A stretch of 50,810 bases of DNA, from NCBI GenBank assembly GCA_023140775.1, contig JAGLLA010000012.1, forward strand, positions 1 through 50,810. Reading direction: 5' to 3'. The translations under genes were made by a program, and so were the position numbers. Shown here in pieces: positions 7,080 to 26,112 of this stretch. The notes beneath the pieces are model-generated. The model searched no databases. It had not been told where the DNA came from and saw only the letters and a program-made list of their open reading frames with translations. The stretch's first letter is position 1. Each line of letters starts with the position of its first letter. The DNA comes from Candidatus Parcubacteria bacterium (GTDB lineage: Bacteria > Patescibacteriota > Minisyncoccia > JAHIHE01 > JAGLIN01).

Positions 7080-7132
7080 CTATTTTTATAACATGCTACC
7101 TTTAAATTAGATTTATCTTTAACAGTAAATAT

Positions 7133-7375: not shown

Positions 7376-7383
7376 ATAAGATT

Positions 7384-7650: not shown

Positions 7651-7700
7651 AACTTTTACAATCTAACTAGGACATAGAGTAGTTTTTTAAACTAACAAGG

Positions 7701-7751
7701 AGCCTAATATGAATCAAATTTAACAATTTGGTCTATATTAGGCTTTTTTTA
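7701..7751 (+). terminator. Hairpin plus T-tract terminator
   Basis: AGCCTAATAT (7701-7710) pairs with ATATTAGGCT (7735-7744), followed by TTTTTTT (7745-7751). The loop is long (24 nt). Confidence 0.45.
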
Positions 7752-7776
7752 TTTATTAATTATTAACATTAAACAA

Positions 7777-9066: not shown

Positions 9067-9805
9067 ATATGGTGACTTATTTCAACTTGGCTCGCATAGA
9101 TTAATTTGTGGAGATTGTCGAGATAAAGAAATCGTAAAGAATCTGATTAAGAAAGATAAAATATGTCAGATCAATATCGACGTTCCCTACGGCGTTGGTT
9201 ATGTAGAATCAAAACAAGGATTTAAACAAAAGCTTGGATGTAATAAAATAATCGCCAACGATCAAACACAAAGCGAAGAAGAATATAAGAAATTTAATAC
9301 AGACTGGCTTGAAGCAATAAAACCTTTCCTATCCCCTACTAACTCATATTATATTTTCAATTCAGACAAAATGATCTTTGCCTTAAAGGAAGCATTAAAT
9401 GAATCCAAATATAAATTTTCACAACTACTCGTGTGGATTAAAAATAACTCAGTTGTTGGAAGACTAGACTATCTTCCACAACACGAATTGATTGCTTATG
9501 GATGGTTTGGTAAACATAAATTCAAAAAATCAAAAGACAAAAGCATACTATTTTGTCCGAAACCAAACAAAAGTAAAATCCATCCCACATCAAAACCTAT
9601 TAGTCTTTTAAGAAGACTGGTACTCAATAACACAAACATTAATGATATTGTTTACGACGGATGTGCTGGTGGTGGAAGTATTATGGTCGCCTGTGAACAA
9701 ACAAAAAGAAAAGCCTACATGATTGAAATTGATCCAGAATACTGTCAAAGAATAATTGACCGCTACGAAATATTAACTAATCAAAAAACTAATAAATTAA
9801 TTTAA
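9026..9805 (+). CDS. Second N4/N6 DNA methyltransferase (no ParB domain)
   Basis: GDLFQLGSHRLICGD (same N-terminal motif as the MTase part of the previous protein), DVPYGVGY tetrad region, TSKPISLLRRLV...VYDGCAGGGSIMVA. Confidence 0.75.
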   Translation: MKHMQTKKQKNLIKYGDLFQLGSHRLICGDCRDKEIVKNLIKKDKICQINIDVPYGVGYVESKQGFKQKLGCNKIIANDQTQSEEEYKKFNTDWLEAIKPFLSPTNSYYIFNSDKMIFALKEALNESKYKFSQLLVWIKNNSVVGRLDYLPQHELIAYGWFGKHKFKKSKDKSILFCPKPNKSKIHPTSKPISLLRRLVLNNTNINDIVYDGCAGGGSIMVACEQTKRKAYMIEIDPEYCQRIIDRYEILTNQKTNKLI

Positions 9806-9809
9806 AATA

Positions 9810-10250
9810 ATGGAAAAAGAATTAAGTTCTTCTCGAAAGGACAAGAATAAAGAGCTTTTAATCGAACAGCTTAAGAAAACTCCAATAATTCAGATAGTTT
9901 GCGAGAAATTAAATATCGCAAGGTCGACTTTCTATCGTTGGAAAAATGATGATGCACAATTCAGTAAAAATGTAGACAATGCCATAATCGAAGGTAATCA
10001 GCTTATAAATGACCTCGCTGAATCAAAACTTATTTCTGCCATTAAAGATCAAAATATGACAGGGATAATATTCTGGCTAAAGAATCATCACAAAACCTAT
10101 GCTGACAAACTTGAGCTGAGAGGAAAAATAAAAACAGAGATTAATAATTTAACTCCCGAACAAGAGGAGTTAATTACGAAAGCTCTTGAACTTTCATCAT
10201 TAGTTGAAAAAAAGAATTCAAGTGATAACAATTTATCAAATAACAATTAA
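9810..10250 (+). CDS. HTH protein, putative terminase small subunit
   Basis: IARSTFYRWKNDDAQFSKNVDNAI...GIIFWLKNHHK pattern, positioned directly upstream of the large terminase gene. Confidence 0.5.
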   Translation: MEKELSSSRKDKNKELLIEQLKKTPIIQIVCEKLNIARSTFYRWKNDDAQFSKNVDNAIIEGNQLINDLAESKLISAIKDQNMTGIIFWLKNHHKTYADKLELRGKIKTEINNLTPEQEELITKALELSSLVEKKNSSDNNLSNNN

Positions 10251-10254
10251 ACTT

Positions 10255-11700
10255 ATGGATATCAACAAATTAAGCAGAAAAGAAATTAATAATATAATTA
10301 ACAACAAGTCTCTAAGAGTAGGACTATGTAAAAATAGTCACAAGTGGTTTTTTAATATCTATTTCGGACATTATATCACACACGAGACTGCTGATTTTCA
10401 CCATAAAATGTTTTTATTAACTGAAAATGAAGATATACCAGTATTAGGAATAGTCGCTTTTAGAGGTTGCGCTAAATCCACAATTTTCACAATGTCCTTT
10501 CCTATGTGGTCGATAATTGGAAAACAAAATAAAAAATTTATCGTACTTCTCGGTGAAACCCAAAGACAAGCAAGACAGCATTTGATAAATATCAGAAAAG
10601 AATTAGAGTGTAATGAATTACTAAGGTCCGATCTTGGTCCATTTAAGGAAATCGAAGATGAGTGGGGTTCGTATTCACTTGTAATTCCAAAATACAATGC
10701 AAGAATTACGGCTGCTTCAATGGAACAGACTATTCGTGGGATGAGACATAATCAATACAGACCAGACCTTATTATTTGTGATGACATTGAAAATTTAAAC
10801 AATGTCAGAACAAAAGAAGGTAGAGATAAAGTATATAATTGGATTACTGGTGAAGTTATTCCAGCAGGAGATCTCAGTACTAGAATAATTTTTATAGGTA
10901 ATTTATTACATGAAGATTCTCTATTAATGAGAATTAAAGATAAAATTAAAAATGATGAACTTGATGGCAAATTCTATGAGATACCCCTTATTGATGAAAA
11001 TAATAAAATTACCTGGTCAGGAAAATATCCAGACATGAAATCAATCGAGAAGGAAAAAAAGAAAATCGGAAATAAAATTGCATGGGAAAGAGAATATATG
11101 CTCAGAATTGTTTCTGATTTTGGCAAAGTAGTTCACTTGGATTGGATACATTATTACGAGAACTTTCCATCTCATAAAGATTTTTTATTTACTATTACCG
11201 GGATAGACCTCGCTATTTCCCAAAATGTTAGCGCTGATTATACAGCCATGGTTTCTGCAAATGTATACATAGAAAATAATGAATTATTAATTTGTATTCT
11301 TCCTAACCCAATTAATGAAAAATTAAGCTTTCCTGAGACCGTAGAAAGATCAAAATTATTATCGAAATCATTAGGAAGCGGATATCCTACTGAACTAGTA
11401 ATCGAAAGTGTAGGATACCAACCAGCACTAATTCAAGAATTGCAAGATAAAGGATTCCCAGCAGAAGGTTTTCCTGTTAAAGGACAAGATAAACGAGCAA
11501 GATTAGCATTAACTACTCACATGATTAAATCTGGACGAATTTTATTTCCTAAAAATGGAGCAGAGCAACTTATTCAACAACTAGTAGGTTTCGGAGTTGA
11601 AAAACATGACGATTTAGCTGACGCATTCGCTATAGTAGTACTTCAATCTCTGAAAAAAGGAGATGAATATTTATACGAACTAATAGCATTCCTAGCATAA
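10255..11700 (+). CDS. Phage terminase large subunit
   Basis: ATPase motifs FRGCAKST (Walker A-like) and PDLIICDDIEN (Walker B); C-terminal RNase-H-like nuclease motifs GIDLAIS and KHDDLADAF. I place the start at the ATG at 10255 (MDINKL...) rather than the overlapping upstream start at 10204. Confidence 0.8.
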   Translation: MDINKLSRKEINNIINNKSLRVGLCKNSHKWFFNIYFGHYITHETADFHHKMFLLTENEDIPVLGIVAFRGCAKSTIFTMSFPMWSIIGKQNKKFIVLLGETQRQARQHLINIRKELECNELLRSDLGPFKEIEDEWGSYSLVIPKYNARITAASMEQTIRGMRHNQYRPDLIICDDIENLNNVRTKEGRDKVYNWITGEVIPAGDLSTRIIFIGNLLHEDSLLMRIKDKIKNDELDGKFYEIPLIDENNKITWSGKYPDMKSIEKEKKKIGNKIAWEREYMLRIVSDFGKVVHLDWIHYYENFPSHKDFLFTITGIDLAISQNVSADYTAMVSANVYIENNELLICILPNPINEKLSFPETVERSKLLSKSLGSGYPTELVIESVGYQPALIQELQDKGFPAEGFPVKGQDKRARLALTTHMIKSGRILFPKNGAEQLIQQLVGFGVEKHDDLADAFAIVVLQSLKKGDEYLYELIAFLA

Positions 11701-12069
11701 TTCAAAAAAGATCATCCCAGTTTTATATTATTAGTTACATTGATTATTAATCTTTTCTCCCCAAGTCATTTTATTTAATGACACAGATTCATTTCTCCTG
11801 AATTGTAACAAAATCTTCCAAAAATTTGATGGTCCAGAAGCATTACAGTTAAATCCAATATCGCTTGAACCAAGGCTAGCACGTAATTGCGGGATAATTG
11901 CATTTAAAGCAATAGAAGATAATGAAGAACCAATGGTTCCAGAAATATTTGTTATTAGTTCTAGTCCGCGCAAAGGAAGAGGATCTTTCGATTTCTGGAA
12001 CGACGAAGATGATGATTGAAATAACAATTAATCTGAAAATAAAAGATTATATTTATTTTGCACCTTTAT

Positions 12070-13341
12070 TTAATACTTATTATTTTCACAATAAACCCTC
12101 ATCTTATAGTCAGTCGACCATTCATTCGCACAAGACAATCTAGCAGAATTAAAGTCTGATTCGGAAACATTTGTTGGTTTACCCTGATTTAATGTTCTAA
12201 TAGCATCATATTGCTGACCTTCACAATAAGCGCGCATTTTAAAATCAGTCAACCACTCATTTTCGCACTTTGGACGAATTACATTAAACTCGATGTCACC
12301 AATATCTGCTGGCTTACCATTATTTAAAGTACGAACTCCATCAAATTGCTGACCTTCACAATAAGCCCTCATCTTAAAGTCAGTAGGCCATTGATTTTTA
12401 CAATGCTCTCTTATTGTTAAAAATTGACTTTCGTTAATATCTGAGGGTTTATTAAGGCTTAATGTTGTCAATCCATTATATTGTTGTTCCTTGCAAAATA
12501 CTTTCATTTTGGCATCATTCGGCCATTCTGACTGACAATGACTTTCTATAATTGTGTCTGCACTATCTTCTATGCTAGATTTTGTTTCAATTGGCAATTC
12601 TTGTGACTCTGAATTTGTTTCATTATTTAACGAGGAAACTATTTCTGTTTTTTCATTATTCTCTTGATTCGATTCAACCTCTACAGAATCCTTAATATCA
12701 TCTTTATTTTCATTTAATTGAATTGGTACTATTTCTTCCTGATTTATATTATTAGATACACTACTTGGTCTTTCTTTGTTAATATTATCAGTAAACTTAT
12801 AGGTTAATATTTGATCCTTTTTAAGATCAGCCTTACTCCAATCGCCATTAGGAGCCCATTCAGCCATAGCCAATGAATAACTGCCATCAACTTGAGTTTC
12901 ATCAAAATAATAAAAAATAGATAAAGCATCTGCTTTTTTTGTCTTATAGTCATTAACTATTTTTTCGCTAACTACCTTAATTTGATTCTCGGTGACGGGA
13001 TTGTTGTTAATAATTACTCTAATATTAAATCTATTAGCAAGAGCATATGAAATATCTTCTTCTTTTACAATTTTATAATCTATGTCTTTTAATATATCAA
13101 CTTTTTCTACTTCAGCTTGAATATTATTAACTGATTTATTTTTACTATCTTCATTACTTCCACCACCAATTATTCCCAAAATAAATACAATTAAAATAAG
13201 AGATATAATCTTATGTCTCATAAACCAATTCCTTAAATCAGATCCACAGTGTTTACATTTTTTAGCACTTTTTAAAACATCTTCTTTACACTTAGCACAT
13301 TTTTTTGTTTGCCCAGAATTTTGTTGTTTTTCTTCAATCAT
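12070..13341 (-). CDS. Zinc-ribbon/TM protein with four tandem Cys-containing C-terminal repeats
   Basis: N-terminus CAKCKEDV...CKHCGSDL, then TM IISLILIVFILGIIGG. The C-terminus carries four copies of C(x)2(E/Q)W(x)(N/T)D(x)KM(K/R)(x)(F/Y)C spaced about 45 aa apart. Confidence 0.6.
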   Translation of the reverse strand: MIEEKQQNSGQTKKCAKCKEDVLKSAKKCKHCGSDLRNWFMRHKIISLILIVFILGIIGGGSNEDSKNKSVNNIQAEVEKVDILKDIDYKIVKEEDISYALANRFNIRVIINNNPVTENQIKVVSEKIVNDYKTKKADALSIFYYFDETQVDGSYSLAMAEWAPNGDWSKADLKKDQILTYKFTDNINKERPSSVSNNINQEEIVPIQLNENKDDIKDSVEVESNQENNEKTEIVSSLNNETNSESQELPIETKSSIEDSADTIIESHCQSEWPNDAKMKVFCKEQQYNGLTTLSLNKPSDINESQFLTIREHCKNQWPTDFKMRAYCEGQQFDGVRTLNNGKPADIGDIEFNVIRPKCENEWLTDFKMRAYCEGQQYDAIRTLNQGKPTNVSESDFNSARLSCANEWSTDYKMRVYCENNKY

Positions 13342-13697
13342 ATGTTTTTTATTAAATAGATTATTTATCTGTTTGTTGACCTTTAGGTGCTGGTTCAGAA
13401 AAACACAAAAAGTCCCCCGAACCAGCTGATAGCCCCTTGCGGAATTATCACTACACCCTTTCGGGTATAGACTTATCCTACAAGTACTGGTCGGAAGACC
13501 ATTTCTGTAGGATAGGTTTTAATACCATGCCTTATGAGAATCACAAGGGTTAGGCATTGAATTGTAATTACATATTAGATTGAATTAAGGAAAAAGTAAA
13601 GCATTAGTTACCTACAGTTTGTCTACTTTAAGCCCTCTAGACACACTAGAGGGGTTGTGTCATTCATTGTTATAGAGATTAACAATAATGCAAAAAT

Positions 13698-15035
13698 ATG
13701 AATGATTCTACGAAAAAATTACAATCCTACAAGGAAATTACTGAGCAAACAAAAGAAGTTGTACCAGCTGTTCGTTATTGCCTTTATGCCAGAAAATCGA
13801 CTGAATCGGACGAACAACAAGCCCTTTCAATTGACTCCCAAATAAATGAAATGACAAATATAGCCATAAGAGATAATTTAAATATAACCGAGATTAGGAA
13901 AGAAAGTCATTCTGCCAAGGACTCAGGGCAAAGACCAGTCTTCAATCAATTAATCAAAGATATCCGAAATGAAATGTTCGATGGTATTCTCACATGGGCT
14001 CCAGATAGATTAAGCAGAAATGCTGGCGACCTTGGTTCCCTTGTAGATTTAATGGATCAGAAAAAGTTATTAAAAATCAAAACATATGGTCAAAACTTTT
14101 CAAACTCCCCTAACGAAAAATTCTTACTAATGATTCTCTGTTCTCAAGCTAAACTTGAGAATGATAACAAGAGCATTAATGTTAAACGAGGATTGAGAAC
14201 AAGATGTGAAATGGGGCTTAGACCAGGAATTGCACCAACTGGCTACCTTAACGAGAAACGAACTGATCGAAGATGTCATGTTCTAGTTGATGTCGATAGA
14301 TCATATGTCATTAGCCAAATGTATGAAAAAGTTGCTAACGAAAATTGGAGCGGAAGAAAAGTATTTCACTGGCTTAAAGATGATATAGATTTCAAAACAA
14401 AAAATGGCAAGCACCTCACCTTGAGTAATGTATATATCATTCTCAAAAATACATTTTACCATGGCAGATTTGAATATCCAGTTGGTAGTGGAAATTGGTA
14501 CACTGGACAGCACAAGCCATTAGTATCCAGAGACTTGTTCGAAAAAGTCCAAAAACAATTAAACCGCGGTATGATTGTGAGATCTGAATCAAAAGAATTT
14601 GCATTTACAAAATTAATCAAATGCGGTTTATGTGGATCTGGCGTAACAGCTGAGGATAAATATAAACAAAGAAAAGACGGCTCAAGAAAAAAATACATCT
14701 ACTATGGATGTACAAGATTCAACGACAAGAAATGTAAATGCGGATATGTTCAAGAGAAAGACTTACTTGAACAATTAATTAAAATACTTGATAAAATAGA
14801 TCTAGACCAAATTGGCATGAAAAGAAAAATTGAACTTGAGATTGAAAGATATAATAAATTTAGATTTGGAGTGTTGGGCATGGATAAAAAAGAAAAAAAT
14901 CAACAAAAAGATGTTGACATTAGAAACTATGCAAAATATATATTGAAAGAAGGAAATGTTTATGAGAAAAGAGAATTGCTGGAATGTTTGAAAAGTAAGT
15001 TAGTTTTAAATGATAAAAAACTATATTTGAGTTAA
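13698..15035 (+). CDS. Large serine recombinase (integrase)
   Basis: Resolvase catalytic domain YCLYARKSTESDEQQALSIDSQ ... ILTWAPDRLSRN; recombinase domain; zinc ribbon CGLCGSGV...YYGC; coiled-coil tail. Confidence 0.85.
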   Translation: MNDSTKKLQSYKEITEQTKEVVPAVRYCLYARKSTESDEQQALSIDSQINEMTNIAIRDNLNITEIRKESHSAKDSGQRPVFNQLIKDIRNEMFDGILTWAPDRLSRNAGDLGSLVDLMDQKKLLKIKTYGQNFSNSPNEKFLLMILCSQAKLENDNKSINVKRGLRTRCEMGLRPGIAPTGYLNEKRTDRRCHVLVDVDRSYVISQMYEKVANENWSGRKVFHWLKDDIDFKTKNGKHLTLSNVYIILKNTFYHGRFEYPVGSGNWYTGQHKPLVSRDLFEKVQKQLNRGMIVRSESKEFAFTKLIKCGLCGSGVTAEDKYKQRKDGSRKKYIYYGCTRFNDKKCKCGYVQEKDLLEQLIKILDKIDLDQIGMKRKIELEIERYNKFRFGVLGMDKKEKNQQKDVDIRNYAKYILKEGNVYEKRELLECLKSKLVLNDKKLYLS

Positions 15036-15132: not shown

Positions 15133-15168
15133 ATTGCACACTTCTATACAAGTGTGCAATGGGTTTTT
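15133..15168 (+). terminator. Perfect 11-bp-arm hairpin plus T-tract after the recombinase gene
   Basis: ATTGCACACTT (15133-15143) / AAGTGTGCAAT (15150-15160), 6-nt loop, then GGGTTTTT. Confidence 0.55.
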
Positions 15169-15423
15169 CTAAAATGGCATATCATCTGAATTTGTTTCCT
15201 CATCTTCGACAGAGGCAGTTTTTTCGATGTCATTAATCGCTTCTATCATTGAATTTATATGTCCTTGCTCTTCTTTGGAAATATCGCCTTCAAATTCTAC
15301 TTCTAATCCCTCTCCTTTTTTTAATTCCTTGATCATTGTTATATAATCTTCAGGAGAAAAGTCATCCCCCTTAATTGTTGCAGAGATTTCCCCGCTTTCT
15401 TTTTTTGTAAATTTTATCTTCAT
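15169..15423 (-). CDS. Small acidic protein, last gene of the PHP-ATPase operon
   Basis: 84 aa, strongly acidic (EVEFEGDISKEEQ...SVEDEETNSDDMPF). Its ATG lies 6 nt after the stop of the upstream gene. Confidence 0.5.
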   Translation of the reverse strand: MKIKFTKKESGEISATIKGDDFSPEDYITMIKELKKGEGLEVEFEGDISKEEQGHINSMIEAINDIEKTASVEDEETNSDDMPF

Positions 15424-15429
15424 ATATTG

Positions 15430-17781
15430 TTATTCTTTAAACTTTTTTAAATTATATTTTTTAAATCTTTTCTTAATTGAAGATTTCCCACCATCTGCAA
15501 TCCTCGCTATGTAATCAACCACGCTTATCTCGTCAATTTTACCTTCCAGCGGATTTGATCTTATTTTGATTTTACCCTCTTTGTTCTCACAAAGTATTAT
15601 ATTTTGAGCATCTCCTGCCATTGGAATTGTAGCGTTGTGAGAAACAAAAATGATTTGTTTTTTAGTTTTCATTTTTTTTATAGCACTTACAAGTCCATTA
15701 TTCATATAACTTGTGGCCAAATTATCTTCTGGCTGGTCGATAATTAGAGGAGCGGAATCCTTTTCGTAGTTTAATATGATCTCCAAAATCGCGGAGGTTT
15801 GACGTCCTGGACTTAAATTATCAATATCTTCTCCATCGGGAGTTTCAATTTTATAAATAACCTTATTTTCTTCTTGAAATTCTAAATAAACTCTATTCTT
15901 AAATCCAGTATAATCATTTACTTTTGGATTTTGTTTAAAACCTGCTTCAAATAATTTCTCCGGCACCAGCTCGCTAAAGAATTCAATTTCATTGTCTTTT
16001 AGTAAGAATTTATTAAATTTCTTTATTAAAATTTCTTTATTTAGTTCAAGTTTGTTCTTAATATATAAAGTATGTCCAGCGACTTTTATTTCTTTCGGTT
16101 TTGGATCAATTGAATATAAAGAAATTTTTTCTAGAGCCTTTTCAAACTTATATAAATTGTTGTAATACTCTTTCATTTTTCCAATAAGTTCCTTGAACTC
16201 TTGTCTATTCTTTTCTGATTCACCCATTTGATCTCTAAGTTCTGTATCAACCTCTTTTTTCTTATTTTCTATCACCATTCTTACTTTTTCCTCAAAAGCA
16301 GAATACTCCTGCATGTCTTTTATTGTTTTTATTAATTCTTCAATTAATTTTTTATTATGATCAACAAAAGGGTTTTGGGATATTTTTTTACTTATTTCGT
16401 TAATCTTATCAAGATGCTCCTCCATCTCCGATTTGCCATATGTGATAGTAGTTAAAGTACTTTCTTCGGGTAAAAGAGGAGTAATTAAATTTCTGTCAGT
16501 ATCTTCCGTGACTAGCAAAGAAGATATTGCCGGCATTTTTTTTATTTCTTTTTCCAAGGCATCTATTCTTTCAACAGAATTCATAAGGTCTGTAAGGTCT
16601 GTGTTTAGCTTCGCTAAACCATTATTTATTTTTTTCTCTGCATCTTTATCTATAGGGAAAACATTTTTAATGATGGCTATATCCGTAATTTTTACATTTT
16701 TATTAGAATCGCTTGTGGCATTAATTATAAAATTTTGCTTAATAAAATGTGGATGCATTTGCTTCGGGTAGTCGACTTTCATGTCTTCGACACCATACTC
16801 CAAATAATTACTGTCTTTAAAATTTGAACGGGTTATTTTCCTGTTTAGCGAATCAGCGAGAAGAGTTTTACCACTTGAAGATTCACCAATAATCACATTC
16901 AGCCCTGGGGTTAATTTGATATCTATATCGATATATTTATTATTTAATGTCACGCCTTTAATTGACTCTTTCCATTTTTCTGGTTGCGTCTGACTGTATA
17001 TTAATCGGGATGACTCAGATAAAGACAATCTAAGACCACTAAAAACTGGGGTTGCCAACATCCAAGTCGGAATAAATTCATAGGTTTCGTCAGCTTTTGG
17101 CTTTGGGTAAATTTCTGGATTGTAATTATCAGTACAAGTTATTAAATTTATGAATTCATCAATCCCGAGCTTTTTGAGATATGCTTTTGTATCTTCGGTT
17201 TTTTTGTCTGATCTGGACGTGAATCCGTCAAAGAAGTTGTAATATACATTTCTCTGCATAGTATTATCAAACTCTTTTCCCTTTGGGATAGACCTCTCAA
17301 AGGTGGAATGTGTTTGACCTCCGTGTGGTAAAAGAATAAAATCGTATTCATCAAATTCATCCAATATCTGCTCAATCATTGGTATTGTTTCATCTTTTAA
17401 GTCTGGCTGTTTGTTTTGGTATAGTTTATCTAACTTACTGTTTATATCATTCAAGACACCCTTATTGATTTCATCAAGATTAAAATATATATGACAATGG
17501 TACGCCTCCGTTTCTGTGTCTTTGTGAGTTTGTATGTGTAACTCAACACCAAGTATTAAACTATGCCTTATTTTTTCAACTGCTTCTAGATAAACTTTTT
17601 CATTTATAGTGTTATGGTCGGTAAATGAAATTAAAAAATCGGAGCCCTGAGCAACGACTTTAACTTTTTCTATCAATGTATCTAAGTCATAGTTTTCATT
17701 TAAACTATTCGGGTTTTCAGAAGTGTGAATATGTAAATCTAAATAGACTGGAACCATAATTTTATATATTGAATTTACCAT
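15430..17781 (-). CDS. PHP (polymerase/histidinol-phosphatase) domain fused to an SMC/ABC-like ATPase; Ppl-like defence candidate
   Basis: PHP motifs LDLHIHTSENP, FTDHNT, HCHIYF, LLPHGGQ; Walker A GESSSGKT; long coiled-coil insert; signature-like LSPGRQTS; Walker B LIIDQPEDNL; FVSHN. Confidence 0.8.
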   Translation of the reverse strand: MVNSIYKIMVPVYLDLHIHTSENPNSLNENYDLDTLIEKVKVVAQGSDFLISFTDHNTINEKVYLEAVEKIRHSLILGVELHIQTHKDTETEAYHCHIYFNLDEINKGVLNDINSKLDKLYQNKQPDLKDETIPMIEQILDEFDEYDFILLPHGGQTHSTFERSIPKGKEFDNTMQRNVYYNFFDGFTSRSDKKTEDTKAYLKKLGIDEFINLITCTDNYNPEIYPKPKADETYEFIPTWMLATPVFSGLRLSLSESSRLIYSQTQPEKWKESIKGVTLNNKYIDIDIKLTPGLNVIIGESSSGKTLLADSLNRKITRSNFKDSNYLEYGVEDMKVDYPKQMHPHFIKQNFIINATSDSNKNVKITDIAIIKNVFPIDKDAEKKINNGLAKLNTDLTDLMNSVERIDALEKEIKKMPAISSLLVTEDTDRNLITPLLPEESTLTTITYGKSEMEEHLDKINEISKKISQNPFVDHNKKLIEELIKTIKDMQEYSAFEEKVRMVIENKKKEVDTELRDQMGESEKNRQEFKELIGKMKEYYNNLYKFEKALEKISLYSIDPKPKEIKVAGHTLYIKNKLELNKEILIKKFNKFLLKDNEIEFFSELVPEKLFEAGFKQNPKVNDYTGFKNRVYLEFQEENKVIYKIETPDGEDIDNLSPGRQTSAILEIILNYEKDSAPLIIDQPEDNLATSYMNNGLVSAIKKMKTKKQIIFVSHNATIPMAGDAQNIILCENKEGKIKIRSNPLEGKIDEISVVDYIARIADGGKSSIKKRFKKYNLKKFKE

Positions 17782-18605
17782 TTTTTGTAATCTTTTTCTA
17801 AATTTTCTATTTCTTTTACTATTTTTTCTTCAAAATATTTATCCATTCTGTCTGCAGTTTTTTCTTTAAATTTATTTAACTCCTTTTTGTTTTTAAAATA
17901 TCGAAAATAAGTTCCTGCAAACTTTGATTTCCATTTTATTATTCCCATTTTCCTAAGCTCTAATAAAATAGTTCTTGTTGATACAAGGGTATAAATAGCA
18001 GTTTTAAGATTTTTCTCTATCATATCGCTATTAATCATTTTTTCGAATTCCTGTAGATTCCTTAAGTACATATCATTTTGTTCAGAAGGTAGGTTTAATT
18101 TTTTGAAAACCATTTTCTCGTTTTTATCAACAGTAGAAGTAAATTGCCTTCGTGTATCATCTATACTTTCTGAGAGATCTTTTAAATTTCTTAATACCAA
18201 TGCCATTTTATTATCCAAATATCCACTTTTTGTGTTTATCGATAAAATTTCATAATTAATAAATTCTTTTCCAATGTAAGGAAAGAATGCATTATCTGTT
18301 GAATAACAACTAACACTTCTTTCTTTAATATTTTCTTTAAGTCCCTTAAATTGACTACTTAAAAATTTCTCAATAGTATATTTAGTATCATAAATACTGT
18401 TTATAGCGTTAACAAGATATTTCTCTAAATAAATTAGATTTCTTTTATGTTCTTTCTTTGCTTCGTATAATTCTTTTAAATACCAAAACGAAATAGGCAG
18501 AATGATTCCAATAGTTGATCCAACCAATGTTTGCCAATTGTATAAGATATCGGTTATCGAAGATATTGTCATAATTTTATTATCAGTATTTTTTAAACTA
18601 GTCAA
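17775..18605 (-). CDS. Single-pass membrane, mostly helical protein; first gene of the PHP-ATPase operon
   Basis: TM LVGSTIGIILPISFWYL. Its stop TAA (17777-17775) overlaps the ATG (17781-17779) of the PHP-ATPase gene in ATGGTAA. Confidence 0.55.
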   Translation of the reverse strand: MTSLKNTDNKIMTISSITDILYNWQTLVGSTIGIILPISFWYLKELYEAKKEHKRNLIYLEKYLVNAINSIYDTKYTIEKFLSSQFKGLKENIKERSVSCYSTDNAFFPYIGKEFINYEILSINTKSGYLDNKMALVLRNLKDLSESIDDTRRQFTSTVDKNEKMVFKKLNLPSEQNDMYLRNLQEFEKMINSDMIEKNLKTAIYTLVSTRTILLELRKMGIIKWKSKFAGTYFRYFKNKKELNKFKEKTADRMDKYFEEKIVKEIENLEKDYKKW

Positions 18606-18735: not shown

Positions 18736-19434
18736 TTAAATCTTTTTAGTAAATTTACATTTAGGATAATTTGAACATCCTACAAATTCACCAAACTTTC
18801 CTTTTCTCACTACGAGCTTTCCACCACAAGTCGGACAAACCTCTGTTTCTCTATTTTCGATAATTTCATTTTCTTTGTTTGCTAGTTTAACCAGTTTCAA
18901 TAATTCATCTCCATCGATCAATTCGATTGGTTTATCTTCTGCGAATTTCACAGCTTCTGTTGTGAAAATGTTTGTTGTAATAAAAATTCCCTTGCCTTGT
19001 GAAAGTTTATCCATTAAGGCACCAGCAAAATCCCTAACATCTCCAACCGATACTTTTGAAGTTATATATTTCTTACATTGAATGTAATGTTTGATACCAT
19101 CTTTTTCAGCAATCACATCCACTCCTCCGTCATATGAACCGCCAACCTTTTCCGTCTTATACCCAAGCTTGAAATACAAATCTGCAATATAAGCTTCAAA
19201 ATCATTTGGATGAAGTTTTCTTAACATTCCAAGTACATCTCGCTCTGATGACCATTTATTAACTTGATCGATTTTCTTCTCAGTCTTTAGCTTTTTAAAA
19301 TACCGTGGCAACCACACTTCGGCAGCTATTTTCATTAATGCAATTATAATCAATAGAATCCACACGGGCCAAAAAGAAATAAGCATAGAGAATATACTTG
19401 CATTTGTTTCATTCGCCATATTAGACCACTCCAT
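18736..19434 (-). CDS. Membrane-anchored Mrr-type restriction endonuclease with a topoisomerase-type zinc finger
   Basis: FEAYIADLYFKLGYKTEKVGGSYDGGVDVIAEKDGIKHYIQCKKY (Mrr_cat D...D..QCK core); C-terminus CPTCGGKLVVRKGKFGEFVGCSNYPKC. Confidence 0.8.
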   Translation of the reverse strand: MEWSNMANETNASIFSMLISFWPVWILLIIIALMKIAAEVWLPRYFKKLKTEKKIDQVNKWSSERDVLGMLRKLHPNDFEAYIADLYFKLGYKTEKVGGSYDGGVDVIAEKDGIKHYIQCKKYITSKVSVGDVRDFAGALMDKLSQGKGIFITTNIFTTEAVKFAEDKPIELIDGDELLKLVKLANKENEIIENRETEVCPTCGGKLVVRKGKFGEFVGCSNYPKCKFTKKI

Positions 19435-19590
19435 ATTGTTTAGTTATTATTAATTCCTTAGTTGCTTTGTCTTATTTTCTCTAAAAGAGTTTCCTTAAAC
19501 TTATACTATCTTCAGTTTAAACTATTTTTTTATTTTTCCACTGTTTATGATTTTGTGGAAATATGAAGAACACACTGAAACCATTTTTTC

Positions 19591-20157
19591 TTATTTCATC
19601 TTTTCCTTTTCGAATAATATCTCGGCGATTCTCCTTTCGTCTTCAGTTAAAAATTCTGATTTTGAAAAATCAGCTTCTTGGGCTGTCTCAAAATAATCAA
19701 TCAATATTTTTTCCTTAGTTTTTCTTAACGACAATGCTTGACCTTCATATTTGAGATTTTCGATTCGATTATGACTCAAATCATCTCTTATATTTTTTAG
19801 CTTCCATAATAGCTTAGTTCGTTTAGTTTCACCGAACAAAGCTTCGTATGCCTTAACTTTATCCGAAAAATTTTCAAGATCATTAAAATTAACTTCTTTT
19901 TCCCCTTTAATTTTCTCTTTTAGTATTTCTTCAACTTTTTTCTTTACTTCAGGAGATAGGGTAGAAGTCTCTGTTTTCAAGGATTCATTTAAAACATAAT
20001 ATAAATCAGTTTCAGCCATATAAACTAACCAGAACACAAAAGAGACAGTGGCAATTTGCTCATCATTCATTTTTAAAGCACATTTGGGAATGGTTTCATT
20101 AATTTGTTGATCTGAAATATCTTCAATTTTCTTTTTAAATAATTCTACTAATTCCAT
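19591..20157 (-). CDS. Helical protein with an Rx4H motif (possible HEPN/Abi-like)
   Basis: LWKLKNIRDDLSHNRIE contains R-x4-H in the C-terminal third of a mostly helical 188-aa protein. The motif alone is weak evidence. Confidence 0.4.
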   Translation of the reverse strand: MELVELFKKKIEDISDQQINETIPKCALKMNDEQIATVSFVFWLVYMAETDLYYVLNESLKTETSTLSPEVKKKVEEILKEKIKGEKEVNFNDLENFSDKVKAYEALFGETKRTKLLWKLKNIRDDLSHNRIENLKYEGQALSLRKTKEKILIDYFETAQEADFSKSEFLTEDERRIAEILFEKEKMK

Positions 20158-20166
20158 AAATTCAAT

Positions 20167-20271
20167 TTATTTATTTTCTATTATCTTAATTTCATCTTCA
20201 CTTAAATCATAAAGTTTATAAACAAGCTGATCGATTTGCGACTCAAGACTTTTAGTGTCCGTATCTTTGTT
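20167..20271 (-). pseudogene. Orphan C-terminal tail of a methyltransferase/restriction-type gene
   Basis: Minus-strand frame NKDTDTKSLESQIDQLVYKLYDLSEDEIKIIENK*. It has no start codon, begins right after the zinc-ribbon ORF stop and ends 9 nt before the next ATG. Confidence 0.4.
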
Positions 20272-20278
20272 TTATTTT

Positions 20279-20950
20279 TCATTCTTCTATTTTTCTAATC
20301 TTATCAACTAAAAACTTTATGTAATATCCTTTATCAGATCTCACTTGAACATATTTTTCATCTACAAAATAATCATACACTTCTCTCTGTGTAGTATCAT
20401 CACGATACCAAAACTTTAATGGCATATTATTTGCTTCTTGTTTTTTTAGGTAAGCAATTGTTTCTTCCAAAGTATTTTCTCTTTGAAAAGTATCTTTTAT
20501 TTTCGGCTTCCTGGGAACAAAGCTCTTAATAACTCCATTAGATGTCCAATTTCTTCCACAATCCTTGCAAACATATCTTTGCTTTTCATTTCTAAATCCT
20601 TTTTTCTCATAATTTTCAGAATCACATGTTGGACATCTATTTCCGTAACTAGAAACCTCATTTTTATTAAAAGCAACTTCACTTGTGCAATTTTGACAAA
20701 CATATATAGAGCCTTCTTTCGCTACCTCTAAATATCCACAATATGGACATTTTATTCCTTCTTGTTTGATTCTTAATTTCTGATAAATTTTCGATGTTCT
20801 TTCGCAATTTCTACAAATTTTATTGCCATTTTTATCTACCACTAACGATTCAGCCTGACAAGTTGAGCAAACTTGACGAATTCTCTCAACTTTCTTTGGT
20901 GTTTTTTTTACAAAACGTTTTTTGCTTATCTTTTTTCTATATTTATGCAA
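20279..20950 (-). CDS. Multi-zinc-ribbon protein (called from a TTG start; the frame stays open further upstream)
   Basis: Three CxxC...CxxC ribbons (CSTCQ..CRNC, CPYCG..CQNC, CPTCD..CKDC) and a C-terminal beta-rich domain. A fourth ribbon is encoded in-frame upstream at 20951-21102. Confidence 0.6.
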   Translation of the reverse strand: MHKYRKKISKKRFVKKTPKKVERIRQVCSTCQAESLVVDKNGNKICRNCERTSKIYQKLRIKQEGIKCPYCGYLEVAKEGSIYVCQNCTSEVAFNKNEVSSYGNRCPTCDSENYEKKGFRNEKQRYVCKDCGRNWTSNGVIKSFVPRKPKIKDTFQRENTLEETIAYLKKQEANNMPLKFWYRDDTTQREVYDYFVDEKYVQVRSDKGYYIKFLVDKIRKIEE

Positions 20951-21102
20951 AACAACACCATGTTCATTTTCGTAACAATTTATACAGTAATTTACAGATT
21001 TATAAGGAAAATAAATTGCTTCATTTATTTTTCCACAATTATCACAAGCCCTTTCGTTTCCTTCTTTTAATCTATCAATCTGATTATGTAATTTTTCAAG
21101 TA

Positions 21103-24100
21103 TTATTTGATTCTGTAGTTTTTTTTTACCAGATTTTGCAATCTGTTATCTAATGTTTCTATTGGATCATCTCCGATATTAAAGCGATTTATTCGCAAAA
21201 ATTTATAACCGTACCCTTCCAAAACTTTTTGCCTATAAATATCATCTTCTTTCATATAATATTTATAATTAGATTCATTCACTTCTTCTCTGTTAACAAA
21301 ATGCTCCTTGAATCCATCATATTCTATGACAATTTTTAATCCGTTGAAAATTAACAAAAAATCAACTTTATAATTTGGATGGTTATAATCCTTGTTTAAT
21401 TGTTTTAAGTATTTTCCAAGATCAAATTGCGGAATAAATTCAATTTTGTCTTTATTTTCTTTATAAAACTTTGTATTATGAAAAATTTCATCAACTTTAT
21501 ATTCCATTTTTGAATCAAGTTTTTTGGTGATTCTTTTCTTACCAATTTTTAATTCATTTTGGTAATGTAACATTGCATTTTTTATTTCTCCTTGAAAGTC
21601 TTCTATTGGTTTGCTTAATACAAAATGGATACATTCCTTAGCACGACTAAATCCGACATTCATTCTTTGAGACCTAAGTGTTCCATCTATTTCGTCGCTG
21701 ATTGAAGAAAAGTCTTTTAAGAATATCCAATTCAAACGATCTTTTTCTTTTGTTGCAACCATTGAATAAAAAATATAGTCCCTTTCTTCCCCCTGACAGG
21801 TATCAAAAGTCATTATTTTTAATTTACACTTTCCAAAAAGCCAATCTCTTTCTGGCAATTCGTTAATTTTATCAAAAAGTAGAGTTACTTGTTCTCTATG
21901 TGGAGTAATAATACCAAGACTTTGTTCAATCTCTTTTTCTTTAAATTCTTGAAGCTGTTTAATTATATGCTTTGCCTCAATTTCATTTGTATTTTTATTT
22001 TCATCAAATTTTCCGTCATGATCTATGACTTCAATTTTAATTACATCTTCAATCTGATTTCCTCTAATCTTCATACACTGAAGAGTATTGTCATAAAAAT
22101 ACTTATCAGAATAAGAAATAATTTCTGGATAACATCGGAAATGTTTTTTTAGTTGGCATTCATAATTTCTGATAAATCTTGAAAATTTAAGAATAGAATT
22201 TTTAATATCAAAATTTTCTTTTACTTTTGTGAGCCAACCATTTTTATCTAGTCCGTTAAGTCTTTCCTCTAAAAAAGTATCTTGTACTCTTTTTCTTAAC
22301 TCTTGATTTGTTACCTTGCTTGCATTATTTGCTTTCACATTTGAAAATTGCTTGTCATCTCCCAACACTATTATCTGTTTCCCTCGCACAAGTGCAGGCA
22401 ACGCCTGTGCAATACTAACTTGCGAAGCCTCGTCAATTATAATCAAATCAAATAGATTTTTCTCTAACGGAATAAATTCTGCATAATCCCTAATTCCTGC
22501 TAAAATACAAGGAAATGCCTTTTTCAAATTTTTAAAGAGGTCTTTCGGAAATTTTTGTTTTCTTCTTACAATATTTTTTAATGTATTTACTTCGCCAGCA
22601 CAATCATTGGTATATTCAATAATTCTTTTATCTAAGAAATATGTCATTCGTGCAGTCGTCAAGTCTTCAATCCCATTTATTGAATTAGAAAATCTGTCTT
22701 CTGGATAAGAGTTAAATTGCTTTTCAAGTTTTGATTGTAGGATTTTATGCTTTGAATATTCTTCAATTTCTTCATTTGTGTAGTCGGACAAAATGCTGGA
22801 CGATTTGTTTATATTCTTTGTCGATATATTTAGATTAATTTTCTCTGAAAAATCAGGATGATTCTCTTTTATGTTTAGAATAAAATCAACTTCGCTCTTT
22901 AATGTTCGCATTTTTTCGACTATCTTGATAAGTTTGTTTAAAGATTTACTTATGTCGTCTGAGAAAAACACACTACAATTTTCATTATTGTCTATTCTTA
23001 TATCACCTGGAATGATGTCTGATAATTTATTAACTACACAATCTATATTATTTATTTGCTTGAATACTTCTATATTCCAACTAACTTGCTGAATTTCATA
23101 CTCTAGATCACTTACATCAACGAGTGATGATTCTAATGTTTCAATCAATTCTTTTTCAGTTACAATATTCTTTTGTAGTTTTTTAATTTTTTGGTAATTA
23201 GACAGATACTCGTTGTTATCATTGCCTAACAAATCTATTAACACTCTAAAAATTGAATACATAGAATCTTCTTTTTCTTTGTATTCATTTGGAATTTTTT
23301 CATAAACAAAATCAAACAAATCAAAAACTTGCTGTATGTCTTTAATAAAATTTTGAGGACTTTCTATTCCAAAATAACTAAAGGTTTTTTTTAAATTTCG
23401 AGTAGCTTTTTCAACTTCCTTGTTTTTAAATAAGAATCCTATAATTGGTAACTTTATTGCATTCAAATTATCAACATATGTTTTAAGTTCTTCGATTGCT
23501 TTTTCAGAGTTTATATTTTTTGGAATCTCAAAATTAGAAAAAATATCGTAGTTATCAAATTTCTCTCCTAAAAATTTCTTTGATTCAGAAAATAGATTAA
23601 AAGATATATCTACAATTTCTGAACGCCACATCAAAACCCCGAGATCCAATTCTTTTGTTGGCTTGAATAATTTTGAAATTACAGGATTGTCTTTATATAG
23701 AATACTCAATTCAGATAATGTTGTTTGTATAGAACTTAAAGAATAAAGTATTTTTTCATCATATGGATTATGACTATCAAATCCTTCAATCAGAGCACCT
23801 GTATTAACATCATTATTTTTTTCTTCAAAATTTGTTTTTGACTCACTTAGAGTGTTTAATGAGTTTTGATATTCATTCAAAAGCTCATAGTTTGTGTCAG
23901 TTAATAATTTTCTATCAATTTTTAAATTACTATCATGTTTGCAAAGATTCTGAATTCCTTTTTTGATTCTCAATAAATCAATGTCATGTTCTTCTGGGGA
24001 ATTAAACCAATCAATGACTGAAAATTTATCAAGATTTTGAAAATAAAATTCAATATCTTTAATATCTATTCCCTCAAAATAATTTATATTTTCTTTTATA

Positions 24101-25839
24101 TTTTTTTCTAACTCACAAAGTGAATTTTTTCTAAGTTCATCATATTCACCCTTTTTATACTTGTAAGCACTATAATGTTCTTTAATTTTTTGAATAGTTT
24201 GACCTTGAACAATTTTATAAAATTTATTTCCTGTTTTTCCAAGTCTTAAAATAGGATTTTGAAAATCATCCTCATGTCTTATTTTGTTCAATGTGCCAGA
24301 AATTTTTTCTTCAACAACATCAAGAGCTTCTTTTTTATCTGATAAAACAAGAACAGACTTTTCTTCTAATAATGCTTTGCAAATAATCGCTGTAATTGTA
24401 TGACTTTTTCCTGTTCCTGGTGGCCCTTCTAGTATCATAAAATTACAATCTGGTTTTTGCAGAGCCATTAAAACTTTTTTTTGTTCATCATTAAGAGGAA
24501 TTGGACTTTCAAATATAAGTTTTTGAGAAATGTCTTTTTCATACCACTCATCTTCAACTTCTTCCATGAAAGGCTTTGGGTTTTCTTCAATAAAGCCATT
24601 TAATAAAGAAGTAAAGTTTTCGAGAATATTTCCGTCATCATTCAATATTTCTTCATAATCGTTAATTAGTGCTTCGTCTGACTTATCAAACAAAAATAAA
24701 TAACCTCTGTTAGAAAATGATGCTATAAGATTCATTCCTTTCTGAAATTCAGAATTTCCTAAATCTACATTTTTATTTAATTCAAAAAAGTTCTCTATTT
24801 TTCTAACATAATTTTTTAAAACGGAAGAAAAATCATCTTCTCCGTTTACGTATAAGATTCTGTCAAATTCTCCAGCTAGTGTTGATTTCTTTTCTGTTTG
24901 TAAATTGAATTCTTGCACAACAAAATCAATAGCCTTTGTATTCACAAAAACACGCTTCTCAAACTGAAAAACAAATCTATCCTCTTTCTTAATAATTGTT
25001 ATTGGTATGTAAAAAACAGGAAATTTTTCATTACCCATGGAAAGTTCATAAAAATATAGATATACTTCTGTTTTATCTATCAATTTATTATTTCTGTACA
25101 ATTGATAAATGTCAAAAAAAGCATCTCCGATAACAAAACTTTCAAAAAACTTGATGAGATTGTTTTTAATCTCAATTAGTTTAATAGTCTCCTGCAAGTT
25201 TTGTTTTGAATCAAAACCTTTTTTGTCTTGAAAAAAGTTTTGTAAGACTTCTGTATATTTATTTTCAAATATAGCAAAAATAGAATCAACAATGTCTGTT
25301 TCTAGTTGAAACTTGCTATTTTCATCGGCTATATCTAAATTTTCAAGTGGCTTGTCAAGGTCATCTAACAATGAAATAATTAAATTTCTTGAGAAAATAT
25401 TTTTTGTTTCTTCCTTGGACTCTTCTAAAAACTTATCATACTCCTTTGCGTACAAAACCCTTTTTTCTTCAATCATGTTTTCAATTTTATTGAAAACTTT
25501 ATCAAGGTCTTTTTCTGTAAGTTTCTTAATTCTCACCTCAATTAAATTAAAAAGGTTTTTAGGAACATTATTTACATATTCACCCTTTTTAATTTGCAAA
25601 CTTTCTTTTTTGAAACCGCTGTTCAAAAGTGCGAAAAAAGTTTTTTTAAGTTTTGGATATTTTTCAAGATCAATCCCGACTTTCAGCCCCTTTTGAGTCT
25701 TTTGAATAGCATTTCTTTTTGGGATTCTTCGCTTCTTAAAATCAGTTTCCAGAAAATTCATAAAATACTTAGCAACTTCTTTCACGAAAGAAGTTGTTTC
25801 AATATTTTCTGATTTTATAATTTCCTTTATTTTTGACAT
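21103..25839 (-). CDS. Giant SF1 (Upf1/Dna2-like) helicase with a DUF4011-like N-terminus and a Vsr/DUF559-like endonuclease C-terminus; Hhe-like defence candidate
   Basis: Walker A ILEGPPGTGKSHT; motif II LIIIDEASQV, VLGDDKQF; TFDTCQGEERDYIFYSMV; C-terminus VDFLLIFNGLKIVIEYDGFKEHF...YRQKVLEGYGYKFLRINRF. About 650 aa are inserted between motifs I and II. Confidence 0.85.
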   Translation of the reverse strand: MSKIKEIIKSENIETTSFVKEVAKYFMNFLETDFKKRRIPKRNAIQKTQKGLKVGIDLEKYPKLKKTFFALLNSGFKKESLQIKKGEYVNNVPKNLFNLIEVRIKKLTEKDLDKVFNKIENMIEEKRVLYAKEYDKFLEESKEETKNIFSRNLIISLLDDLDKPLENLDIADENSKFQLETDIVDSIFAIFENKYTEVLQNFFQDKKGFDSKQNLQETIKLIEIKNNLIKFFESFVIGDAFFDIYQLYRNNKLIDKTEVYLYFYELSMGNEKFPVFYIPITIIKKEDRFVFQFEKRVFVNTKAIDFVVQEFNLQTEKKSTLAGEFDRILYVNGEDDFSSVLKNYVRKIENFFELNKNVDLGNSEFQKGMNLIASFSNRGYLFLFDKSDEALINDYEEILNDDGNILENFTSLLNGFIEENPKPFMEEVEDEWYEKDISQKLIFESPIPLNDEQKKVLMALQKPDCNFMILEGPPGTGKSHTITAIICKALLEEKSVLVLSDKKEALDVVEEKISGTLNKIRHEDDFQNPILRLGKTGNKFYKIVQGQTIQKIKEHYSAYKYKKGEYDELRKNSLCELEKNIKENINYFEGIDIKDIEFYFQNLDKFSVIDWFNSPEEHDIDLLRIKKGIQNLCKHDSNLKIDRKLLTDTNYELLNEYQNSLNTLSESKTNFEEKNNDVNTGALIEGFDSHNPYDEKILYSLSSIQTTLSELSILYKDNPVISKLFKPTKELDLGVLMWRSEIVDISFNLFSESKKFLGEKFDNYDIFSNFEIPKNINSEKAIEELKTYVDNLNAIKLPIIGFLFKNKEVEKATRNLKKTFSYFGIESPQNFIKDIQQVFDLFDFVYEKIPNEYKEKEDSMYSIFRVLIDLLGNDNNEYLSNYQKIKKLQKNIVTEKELIETLESSLVDVSDLEYEIQQVSWNIEVFKQINNIDCVVNKLSDIIPGDIRIDNNENCSVFFSDDISKSLNKLIKIVEKMRTLKSEVDFILNIKENHPDFSEKINLNISTKNINKSSSILSDYTNEEIEEYSKHKILQSKLEKQFNSYPEDRFSNSINGIEDLTTARMTYFLDKRIIEYTNDCAGEVNTLKNIVRRKQKFPKDLFKNLKKAFPCILAGIRDYAEFIPLEKNLFDLIIIDEASQVSIAQALPALVRGKQIIVLGDDKQFSNVKANNASKVTNQELRKRVQDTFLEERLNGLDKNGWLTKVKENFDIKNSILKFSRFIRNYECQLKKHFRCYPEIISYSDKYFYDNTLQCMKIRGNQIEDVIKIEVIDHDGKFDENKNTNEIEAKHIIKQLQEFKEKEIEQSLGIITPHREQVTLLFDKINELPERDWLFGKCKLKIMTFDTCQGEERDYIFYSMVATKEKDRLNWIFLKDFSSISDEIDGTLRSQRMNVGFSRAKECIHFVLSKPIEDFQGEIKNAMLHYQNELKIGKKRITKKLDSKMEYKVDEIFHNTKFYKENKDKIEFIPQFDLGKYLKQLNKDYNHPNYKVDFLLIFNGLKIVIEYDGFKEHFVNREEVNESNYKYYMKEDDIYRQKVLEGYGYKFLRINRFNIGDDPIETLDNRLQNLVKKNYRIK

Positions 25840-26041
25840 ATTTTTTATTTAACCCCGTTCATTTATATACAAACAAATACGCCTGAAACATTTTAAAATC
25901 ACATAGGGCGTACCTATAACCTATATTACCCTTAAAAAGAGAATTAGTAAAGAAAATGAGAAAATTACACAACAAAAAAACACTTCCTAAAAAGCGCTTT
26001 TTTATAGGTGTCTCGGTCGCGAAACACCTCTCACATGACTG

Positions 26042-26112
26042 TTCGGGGACAGGGATTCGAACCCCGATTGCCTGGACCAAAACCAGGTGTCCTACCATTA
26101 GACTATCCCCGA
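26042..26112 (-). tRNA. tRNA-Gln (anticodon UUG)
   Basis: TCGGGGA TA GTCT AATGGTA GGAC A CCTGG TTTTGGT CCAGG CAAT CGGGG TTCGAAT CCCTG TCCCCGA A folds as a cloverleaf by hand. It has a U1:A72 pair, a 7-nt anticodon loop with TTG at 34-36, and no encoded CCA. Confidence 0.9.

Follow-up and report, generated by a model that had tools for sequence, protein, structure and literature searches.

A PHP-ABC ATPase gene on a Parcubacteria contig is invariably paired with a small acidic gene: a candidate two-gene, Ppl-like defence module

A stretch of 50,810 nucleotides from Candidatus Parcubacteria bacterium (contig JAGLLA010000012.1 of assembly GCA_023140775.1; "the window" below means this whole stretch) carries three consecutive minus-strand open reading frames (ORFs) of 276 aa (17775-18605), 783 aa (15430-17781) and 84 aa (15169-15423). 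A first-pass annotation of the bare sequence regarded them as one operon, in which a PHP-SMC/ABC ATPase fusion would be joined by a membrane protein upstream and an acidic protein downstream to form an undescribed multi-component relative of the defence system Ppl. Which of the three genes belong together, and what would they do? At the level of the DNA and its translation that annotation was accurate: the ORFs, all motifs quoted from them, the 6-nt gap between the stop codon of the ATPase gene and the 84-aa ORF, and the ATGGTAA in which the 276-aa and 783-aa ORFs overlap by 7 nt could all be read. Its wider claim stood in part. The configuration matches no curated defence model, but it comprises two genes, the PHP-ATPase and the acidic protein, and not three.

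In all homologues and in the NCBI annotation, the large protein starts at the second in-frame ATG (M9, position 17757, MxPVYLDLH), which gives a gene at 15430..17757 on the minus strand and a product of 775 aa; the alternative in-frame ATG at 17781 gives the 783-aa form. Its translation carries LDLHIHTS, HCHIYF, LLPHGGQ, the Walker A motif GESSSGKT, LSPGRQTS and LIIDQPEDNL. Judged from sequence and model, the protein combines in one chain a PHP phosphoesterase and an ABC ATPase of the SMC/Rad50 type that is interrupted by a coiled coil. The predicted parts, all on the minus strand, are a PHP domain (aa 1-255; 16993..17757), delimited by invariant residues and Foldseek PHP matches; the N-lobe of the ABC head with Walker A GESSSGKT and the Q-loop Gln (aa 268-345; 16723..16956), recognized by motifs, a profile search of the PDB and Foldseek; a coiled-coil insertion that splits the two halves of the head (aa 371-546; 16120..16647), seen as predicted helices; the C-lobe with the signature-like LSPGRQTS, Walker B LIIDQPEDNL and the H-loop VSHNA (aa 555-755; 15493..16095); and a basic C-terminal tail, GGKSSIKKRFKKYNLKKFKE (15433..15492), which is invariant and predicted to be disordered.

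An AlphaFold2 (AF2) model of the ATPase, built from 50 homologues, had a mean predicted local distance difference test score (pLDDT) of 82.6. It showed an N-terminal alpha/beta domain (residues 1-255), the head N-lobe, long helices at 371-406, 442-461, 469-511 and 513-546 (about 175 residues, 371-546), the head C-lobe and the disordered basic tail (pLDDT <50 for residues 757-775). Searched against the PDB with Foldseek, the head matched those of condensin/SMC, RecN, JetC, Rad50 and AriA (E 5e-7 to 1e-4), and the N-terminal domain matched the PHP structures 3o0f (E 2.7e-5) and 2yb1 and the PHP domain of PolIII-alpha (4iqj). The profile search of PDB sequences matched the Walker A region of Rad50.

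Across the 50 homologues, D7, H9, H11, D47, H48, E72, H74, H87, H89, H145, H150 and D210 are invariant, and we take these His, Asp and Glu residues of the PHP motifs as putative metal ligands. Equally invariant are Walker A, the Q-loop Gln, the signature Ser/Gly, Walker B and the H-loop. The head is split, with a coiled coil between its lobes, as in SMC/Rad50/RecN-type ABC ATPases, and one deviation is the DQPED of Walker B, in which Gln occupies the position of the catalytic Glu of ABC proteins. Because of this replacement, the head may bind nucleoside triphosphates (NTP) and dimerize but hydrolyze them poorly. IIDQPED was found in 47/47 clade members and in all 16 longer (at least 800 aa) distant relatives; its invariance suggests an unusual, possibly slow or sensor-type, NTPase site throughout the Ppl/TrlF superfamily.

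To which family does this protein belong? The best curated match was NCBIfam TrlF (NF045780; E 1.3e-54), with 186.3 bits against a cut-off of 350. NCBIfam Spaf_1101 (NF045781) scored 113.4 bits against a cut-off of 475, with residues 54-777 of the query aligned to 112-833 of the model. NCBIfam Ppl (NF042955) scored 100.8 bits against a cut-off of 1000, its best stretch being residues 642-775, and the PADLOC Ppl model (PDLC02208) matched at 72 bits over the same 134 C-terminal residues only. Membership of Ppl, TrlF or Spaf_1101 was rejected, since all three curated cut-offs were missed, and on these scores the large protein is best placed in a separate, unnamed clade of about 775 aa within the Ppl/TrlF/Spaf_1101 superfamily. 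The alignment to Spaf_1101 is the only near-full-length one to a curated model and the best support for homology across the PHP region. Based on this alignment, the invariant His/Asp/Glu residues and the Foldseek PHP matches, and not on Pfam, we assigned the PHP domain. Thus the fusion and its kinship with Ppl, as first annotated, were borne out by NCBIfam, the invariant motifs and Foldseek; orthology with Ppl was not. No structure of Ppl was detected in the PDB by sequence or by fold.

The query matched more than 1300 proteins in the database. Each of the best 120 is a full-length match of 769-794 aa with at least 49% identity. Taking one genome per species, we surveyed 80 loci, 56 of the clade and 24 of distant relatives that match the query at its C-terminus only; four close metagenomic relatives, with ATPases 61-70% identical, bring the clade to 60 loci. 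Its members come from Bacteroidota, Bacillota, Pseudomonadota, Campylobacterota, Desulfobacterota, Actinobacteria, Cloacimonadota and Patescibacteria. Ten of the 24 distant relatives were scanned with the TrlF model, and all ten passed its cut-off (358-597 bits).

The small acidic gene (15169..15423, minus strand, 84 aa) is the conserved second component of the clade loci. By tblastn, homologues of its product were found just 3' of the ATPase gene in many loci, and nearly all clade loci have a small acidic ORF there (72-105 aa, median isoelectric point (pI) 4.45, gap -29 to +9 nt). We then searched all ORFs of 40 aa or more in the 80 loci with a profile of the partner family (alignment A4). 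The profile gave 56 matches, each directly 3' of the ATPase gene, one in each of the 56 clade loci and nowhere else; the 24 distant-relative loci gave none. With the four metagenomic relatives, all of which have the partner, the linkage amounts to 60/60 clade loci. Pairwise identities of ATPase and partner diverge together (r = 0.83, a value reached by 0/2000 Mantel permutations). Strict linkage and this correlation established that the two genes are inherited and diverge as one unit, and that the 84-aa protein is the obligate genomic partner of the clade ATPase. The two genes are probably translationally coupled. A third conserved gene was not found: 359 flanking genes fell into 313 clusters, none of which occurred in more than 5 loci.

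The partner is highly acidic, as first annotated (pI 4.28; 23 D/E against 10 K/R). No consistent relatives of it were found in Pfam, PADLOC, PHROGs, NCBIfam or PDB sequences; a match in the PDB profile search was a designed-repeat artefact, and a Foldseek match in the PDB to ExbD/TolR-like proteins (E ~0.03) was too weak to use. Against BFVD, Foldseek found nothing below E = 0.1. The AF2 model (47-sequence alignment, pLDDT 79) predicts a beta-beta-alpha-beta-alpha core at residues 1-64 (pLDDT ~85 over the core), followed by a disordered acidic tail (aa 65-84; 15172..15231, minus strand; pLDDT <50 for residues 71-78).

The tail of the window partner ends in ...EETNSDDMPF, its last five residues being encoded at 15172-15186. 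The closest homologues share the C-terminal consensus D-x-P-F, with endings such as DDIPF, DDLPF, DDVPF and EDIPF, and 26 of the 48 closest end in a sequence like [DE][DE][ILVM]PF-COOH. The C-terminal tip of SSB (the bacterial protein that binds single-stranded DNA), ...DDDIPF in E. coli, is a docking peptide for many genome-maintenance proteins. As in SSB, the window partner presents D-D-[ILVM]-P-F at a free C-terminus behind what is predicted to be a disordered acidic linker. It differs from SSB in lacking the oligonucleotide/oligosaccharide-binding (OB) fold, its globular part being the beta-beta-alpha-beta-alpha unit of about 64 aa with no detectable relatives, and most of the more distantly related members of the partner family lack the tip.

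The charges of the two proteins are complementary. The C-terminal tail of the enzyme carries a net charge of +7.6 in the clade against +2.7 in the partner-less longer relatives (p = 2e-9), and the partners have a mean net charge of -9. This complementarity suggests an electrostatic contact of the partner with the enzyme tail.

What might the pair do? We favour, with moderate confidence, a two-gene module in which the PHP-ATPase and its obligate acidic partner act in Ppl-like defence against phages or other mobile elements. As described in PMC12904381, Ppl of E. coli is a 3'-5' exonuclease on single-stranded DNA (ssDNA) whose PHP and NTPase domains are inhibited by NTP and which senses 3'-OH ends; for the primary report on its mechanism, 10.64898/2026.05.12.722862 cites Xu et al. 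2026, Mol Cell 86:180. We propose a similar NTP-gated logic here because the window protein keeps the PHP and NTP-binding motifs intact. The ABC heads would bind NTP and dimerize, and with its Gln-bearing Walker B the head may be an NTP sensor rather than a motor. Once licensed, the metal-dependent PHP domain would cut back invader DNA, starting at free ends. For the acidic partner we propose the role of a regulatory subunit bound to the enzyme, whose polyanionic tail may pair with the basic C-terminal tail or with a DNA-binding surface; the nuclease would thereby be kept away from host DNA until the partner is dislodged by infection. Such a subunit would most likely be an inhibitor or DNA mimic that infection releases; it could be an adaptor instead.

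Several points weigh against this proposal. The Foldseek matches of the PHP domain are moderate (template-modelling score ~0.44), and a Pfam scan of the large protein gave no PHP match and AAA_21 only below threshold. The argument for defence draws on homology and genomic context, and to carry over the substrate and trigger of Ppl is a long extrapolation, the similarity being confined to the C-terminal ~130 residues. It is genomics and charge that point to binding of the partner, which might inhibit, activate or target the enzyme. That Ppl has no such partner is taken from the literature, no distant locus in the survey having reached the Ppl cut-off. The mobility of the clade is read from neighbouring recombinases; PLSDB plasmids, INPHARED phages and IMG/VR contained no full-length clade member, only TrlF/Spaf-type relatives. 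Finally, the SSB-like ending occurs in 7/57 partners of the species-representative set, and its carriers are scattered on the ATPase tree. Because only a subset has it, so distributed, the tip is a recurrent add-on and not the core function of the partner.

The same tip could nevertheless be given a central place. The partner might be an SSB-tail decoy or adaptor, so that the system monitors the SSB interaction hub through a mimic subunit. Its tail would plug an SSB-tail pocket on the PHP-ATPase or, alternatively, would serve as a false SSB tail for proteins of the phage or the host that use SSB as a docking site. Displacement or capture of the partner, by abundant SSB-coated phage ssDNA or by a phage protein with affinity for SSB tails, would free the 3'-end-directed PHP exonuclease. 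If true, this would be a new sensing principle in a widespread unnamed two-gene defence family. We regard the decoy or adaptor as speculative and rather unlikely. The SSB-tip-like ending as such connects the system with SSB and ssDNA sensing, a theme that recurs in anti-phage immunity.

The surroundings of the pair bear on another explanation, a toxin-antitoxin-like addiction module in which the PHP nuclease would be the toxin, the acidic protein a labile antitoxin, and the element carrying a serine recombinase would be stabilized by them. A large serine recombinase gene (13698..15035, plus strand; Pfam Resolvase, Recombinase and Zn_ribbon_recom) is convergent with the pair in the window. Between it and the partner gene, a hairpin with an 11-bp stem followed by a T-run (15133..15160) is likely a bidirectional terminator closing the operon. 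In three of the close metagenomic relatives, the same convergent slot holds a 60% identical recombinase (L091 and L092) or a fragment of one (L093). The loci L091 and L092 are 99.8% identical from a helix-turn-helix (HTH) regulator through Type III Mod/Res, the PHP-ATPase, the partner and the serine recombinase, and wholly different to the left of ~927 (Fic in one, a sensor kinase in the other), so that one boundary is captured; this is consistent with a mobile unit inserted or recombined into different backgrounds. The recombinase is likely the mobility gene of the element that carries the module.

These adjoining recombinases, the combination of a large enzyme with a small acidic protein whose tail is predicted to be disordered, the strict linkage of the genes and the scatter of the module over phyla and variable contexts would all suit an addiction module. 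Yet a homologous recombinase is adjacent in only 4/60 loci, and defence genes, not any single type of element, dominate the neighbourhoods, which include Type I and III restriction-modification (RM) systems, AbiLi, AriA, PglX, SLFN-type helicases, relaxases, integrases and a transposase. The nearest, and only, characterized relative, Ppl, is a phage-activated defence nuclease, and by that analogy too we consider an addiction role distinctly unlikely as the principal one, while noting that addiction and defence are not mutually exclusive. With flanks that are variable and rich in defence and mobility genes, and no other conserved neighbour, the pair bears the marks of a self-contained unit shifting from one defence island or mobile element to another.

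In the window, the pair is cargo of an integrative or prophage-like region. On the far side of the recombinase lie genes for the small and large terminase subunits, two DNA methyltransferases and an S24 repressor-like protein. The whole block at 6342-15035 is phage-like; it contains the S24 peptidase repressor-like gene, a ParB-fused methyltransferase, a second N6/N4 DNA methyltransferase, the terminase (phrog_38, E = 6e-77) and the recombinase, and no recognizable capsid genes were found in it. The block might be what remains of a prophage, or else a satellite-like element, with defence cargo at its integrase-proximal end. Within the block, the Rfam LOOT RNA motif (RF03000) occurs at 13428-13556 on the minus strand as a full-length match whose 69 bits exceed the gathering score of 46. 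The motif lies ~90 nt upstream of a gene for a 423-aa zinc-ribbon/repeat protein (12070-13341, minus strand) and may be a 5'-untranslated region element of that gene.

On the other side, an island at 18736-25839 (minus strand) encodes an Mrr_cat protein, a 188-aa protein, a zinc-ribbon protein and a superfamily 1 (SF1) helicase; beyond it are tRNA-Gln and dnaX. The Mrr_cat nuclease has a Top1-type zinc ribbon and an N-terminal hydrophobic stretch. The zinc-ribbon protein, of 223 aa, has several such ribbons, including an IS1/IS1595-type N-terminal Zn domain. The SF1 helicase (1578 aa; AAA_11/AAA_12) is matched by the PADLOC models PDC-S37, MkoA/MkoC and Hhe. The 188-aa protein had no matches in the libraries searched, and a comparison with the 188-aa genes of two other loci (L081 and L090) gave no match. 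A 26-nt direct repeat (26091-26116 and 26471-26496, 96% identical) overlaps with one copy the 5' part of tRNA-Gln (26041-26112, minus strand), the second copy lying 380 nt off towards dnaX. The repeat might stem from a partial duplication of the tRNA, or be what is left of an att site where the defence island ends.

Does the gene upstream of the ATPase belong to the module, as the first-pass annotation had it? Its start is most likely the ATG at 18572, used by homologues and by the ENA gene call, which gives 265 aa (17775..18572, minus strand) rather than the 276 aa obtained from the TTG at 18605. The ATGGTAA overlap had been read as translational coupling to the ATPase gene. The letters are there; because the homologues and the annotation start the ATPase at 17757, the genes are probably separated by a gap of 17 nt. 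The protein is basic (pI 9.3) and, of the single transmembrane helix ascribed to it, a moderately hydrophobic N-terminal segment was confirmed: it is conserved (18477-18533; Kyte-Doolittle 1.3-1.6 over 19 aa; family consensus NWQTLVGSxIGIILP) and makes a membrane anchor plausible.

A system of three genes, with this single-pass protein as membrane partner of the PHP-ATPase and the acidic protein, would agree with the common direction of the genes and their spacing (17 nt apart, or overlapping by 7 nt). The ~130-160 nt of non-coding DNA 5' of the 276-aa gene could house a shared promoter; in a promoter scan, promoter-like sites were no more numerous than expected from shuffled sequence. Homologues of the upstream protein also lie in defence-type neighbourhoods. 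On the other hand, tblastn of the 276-aa protein over 93 loci found no homologue in any of the 60 clade loci, even those with 61-70% identical ATPases. Its 11 homologues, 63-72% identical, occur in other contexts; these were looked up for four homologues and are of four kinds. In L081-L083 a Type IIG RM gene precedes the homologue by 22 nt; in L084 and L085 it is flanked by tsaE and a PRiA4-like gene; in L086-L088, downstream of dnaX, an unknown gene and a pyruvate-kinase fragment enclose it; and L089 has a fourth setting. L084 and L089 have AAA_15/DUF3226 pairs nearby, and the PHP-ATPase is absent from all four contexts.

With no homologue in the clade loci and homologues of its own in four other contexts, the upstream protein is a chance neighbour and not a partner. 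Nor is its tight spacing evidence of partnership, because unrelated genes are as close to the ATPase gene elsewhere: in close relatives the upstream slot is taken by a 188-aa ORF, a Type III Res gene (4-nt gap) or an SF1 helicase gene (4-nt gap). The three-gene system is thus very unlikely, and tight gene spacing inside defence islands proves a poor guide to functional partnership. The upstream protein belongs to a small family on metagenome contigs of the candidate phyla radiation (CPR)/DPANN type, always as a solo gene in variable, often defence-like surroundings, and could be an independent candidate defence or accessory gene.

Least probable of all is a housekeeping DNA-repair machine, a fused nuclease and Rad50/RecN-like ATPase analogous to SbcCD/Mre11-Rad50 with a small accessory factor: the structural neighbours (Rad50, RecN and SMC heads), the use of PHP domains as proofreading or repair nucleases in PolX and PolIII and the SSB-tip-like tail would fit it, but the genes have no conserved genomic position, their flanks vary and abound in RM, Abi, transposase and integrase genes, close relatives in unrelated phyla imply horizontal transfer, and in the window a recombinase on one side and a tRNA gene on the other enclose the island that holds the pair.

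How does the two-gene module compare with what has been described? Ppl is catalogued as a one-gene system, and its relatives TrlF and Spaf_1101 are annotation labels only. The present analysis defines a fourth PHP-ATPase clade, of about 775 aa, invariably paired with an acidic protein undescribed in databases. No PADLOC, Pfam or NCBIfam model matches the two-gene configuration, so that current defence finders would miss or mislabel this candidate system. We found no description of the configuration in the searchable literature, the ABC-ATPase survey of Krishnan et al. 2020 lying outside that coverage.

The closest precedent for a multi-gene PHP-ATPase operon is the trlR-trlF-trlG 'temperature restriction locus' of Photorhabdus, in which TrlF is accompanied by a regulator-like TrlR of ~79 aa upstream and an AlbA_2/HATPase_c_4 protein, TrlG, downstream (bioRxiv 10.1101/2020.06.02.129163). 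Like that operon, the window has a PHP-ATPase together with a small protein. TrlF proteins are longer, 850-980 aa against ~775 aa in the clade, and neither TrlG nor TrlR flanks the ATPase gene of the window. Among the distant loci of our survey, a gene of ~390-410 aa lies directly downstream of the ATPase relative in L065, L067, L068, L073 and L080, of which L065, L067 and L073 were confirmed as TrlF family; it may be a trlG-type partner and hints at a conserved third gene in that family. A 185-aa gene lies directly upstream in L060, L061, L067 and L071, and a 190-aa gene in L073. Genes annotated as Spaf_1101 differ from the clade in being found on Bacillus plasmids, where the clade is absent.

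The coiled-coil-inserted head fold is shared with a range of ABC/SMC-type machines, SbcCD/Mre11-Rad50, RecN, Wadjet JetC, PARIS AriA-AriB, Gabija GajA and Septu/retron PtuA (Foldseek E 5e-7 to 1e-3). By analogy, the logic may be shared as well, an NTP-gated ATPase controlling a nuclease. In the clade, the predicted nuclease is a PHP domain fused in cis and not a Mre11, TOPRIM or HNH subunit, the catalytic Glu of Walker B is replaced by Gln, and the extra subunit is a tiny acidic protein instead of a nuclease or kleisin.

The likeness to Ppl itself is the most extensive. Both proteins have an N-terminal PHP domain and an ABC/SMC-like NTPase with a coiled-coil insertion, both occur in defence islands, and they are homologous over the C-terminal ~130 residues, a stretch that takes in the IIDQPED Walker B and a GG...R..KY tail. 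The window protein is shorter by ~100 residues, the clade has a Walker A of G[EG]SSSGKT and its C-terminal tail is far more basic. Ppl was reportedly described as a single-gene system by Gao and colleagues in 2020, whereas the clade ATPase gene is followed by the small acidic gene in every one of the 60 loci. Side by side, the two families form a natural experiment in the regulation of Ppl-type nucleases, with an acidic subunit proposed to act in trans in the clade and intrinsic inhibition by NTP in Ppl.

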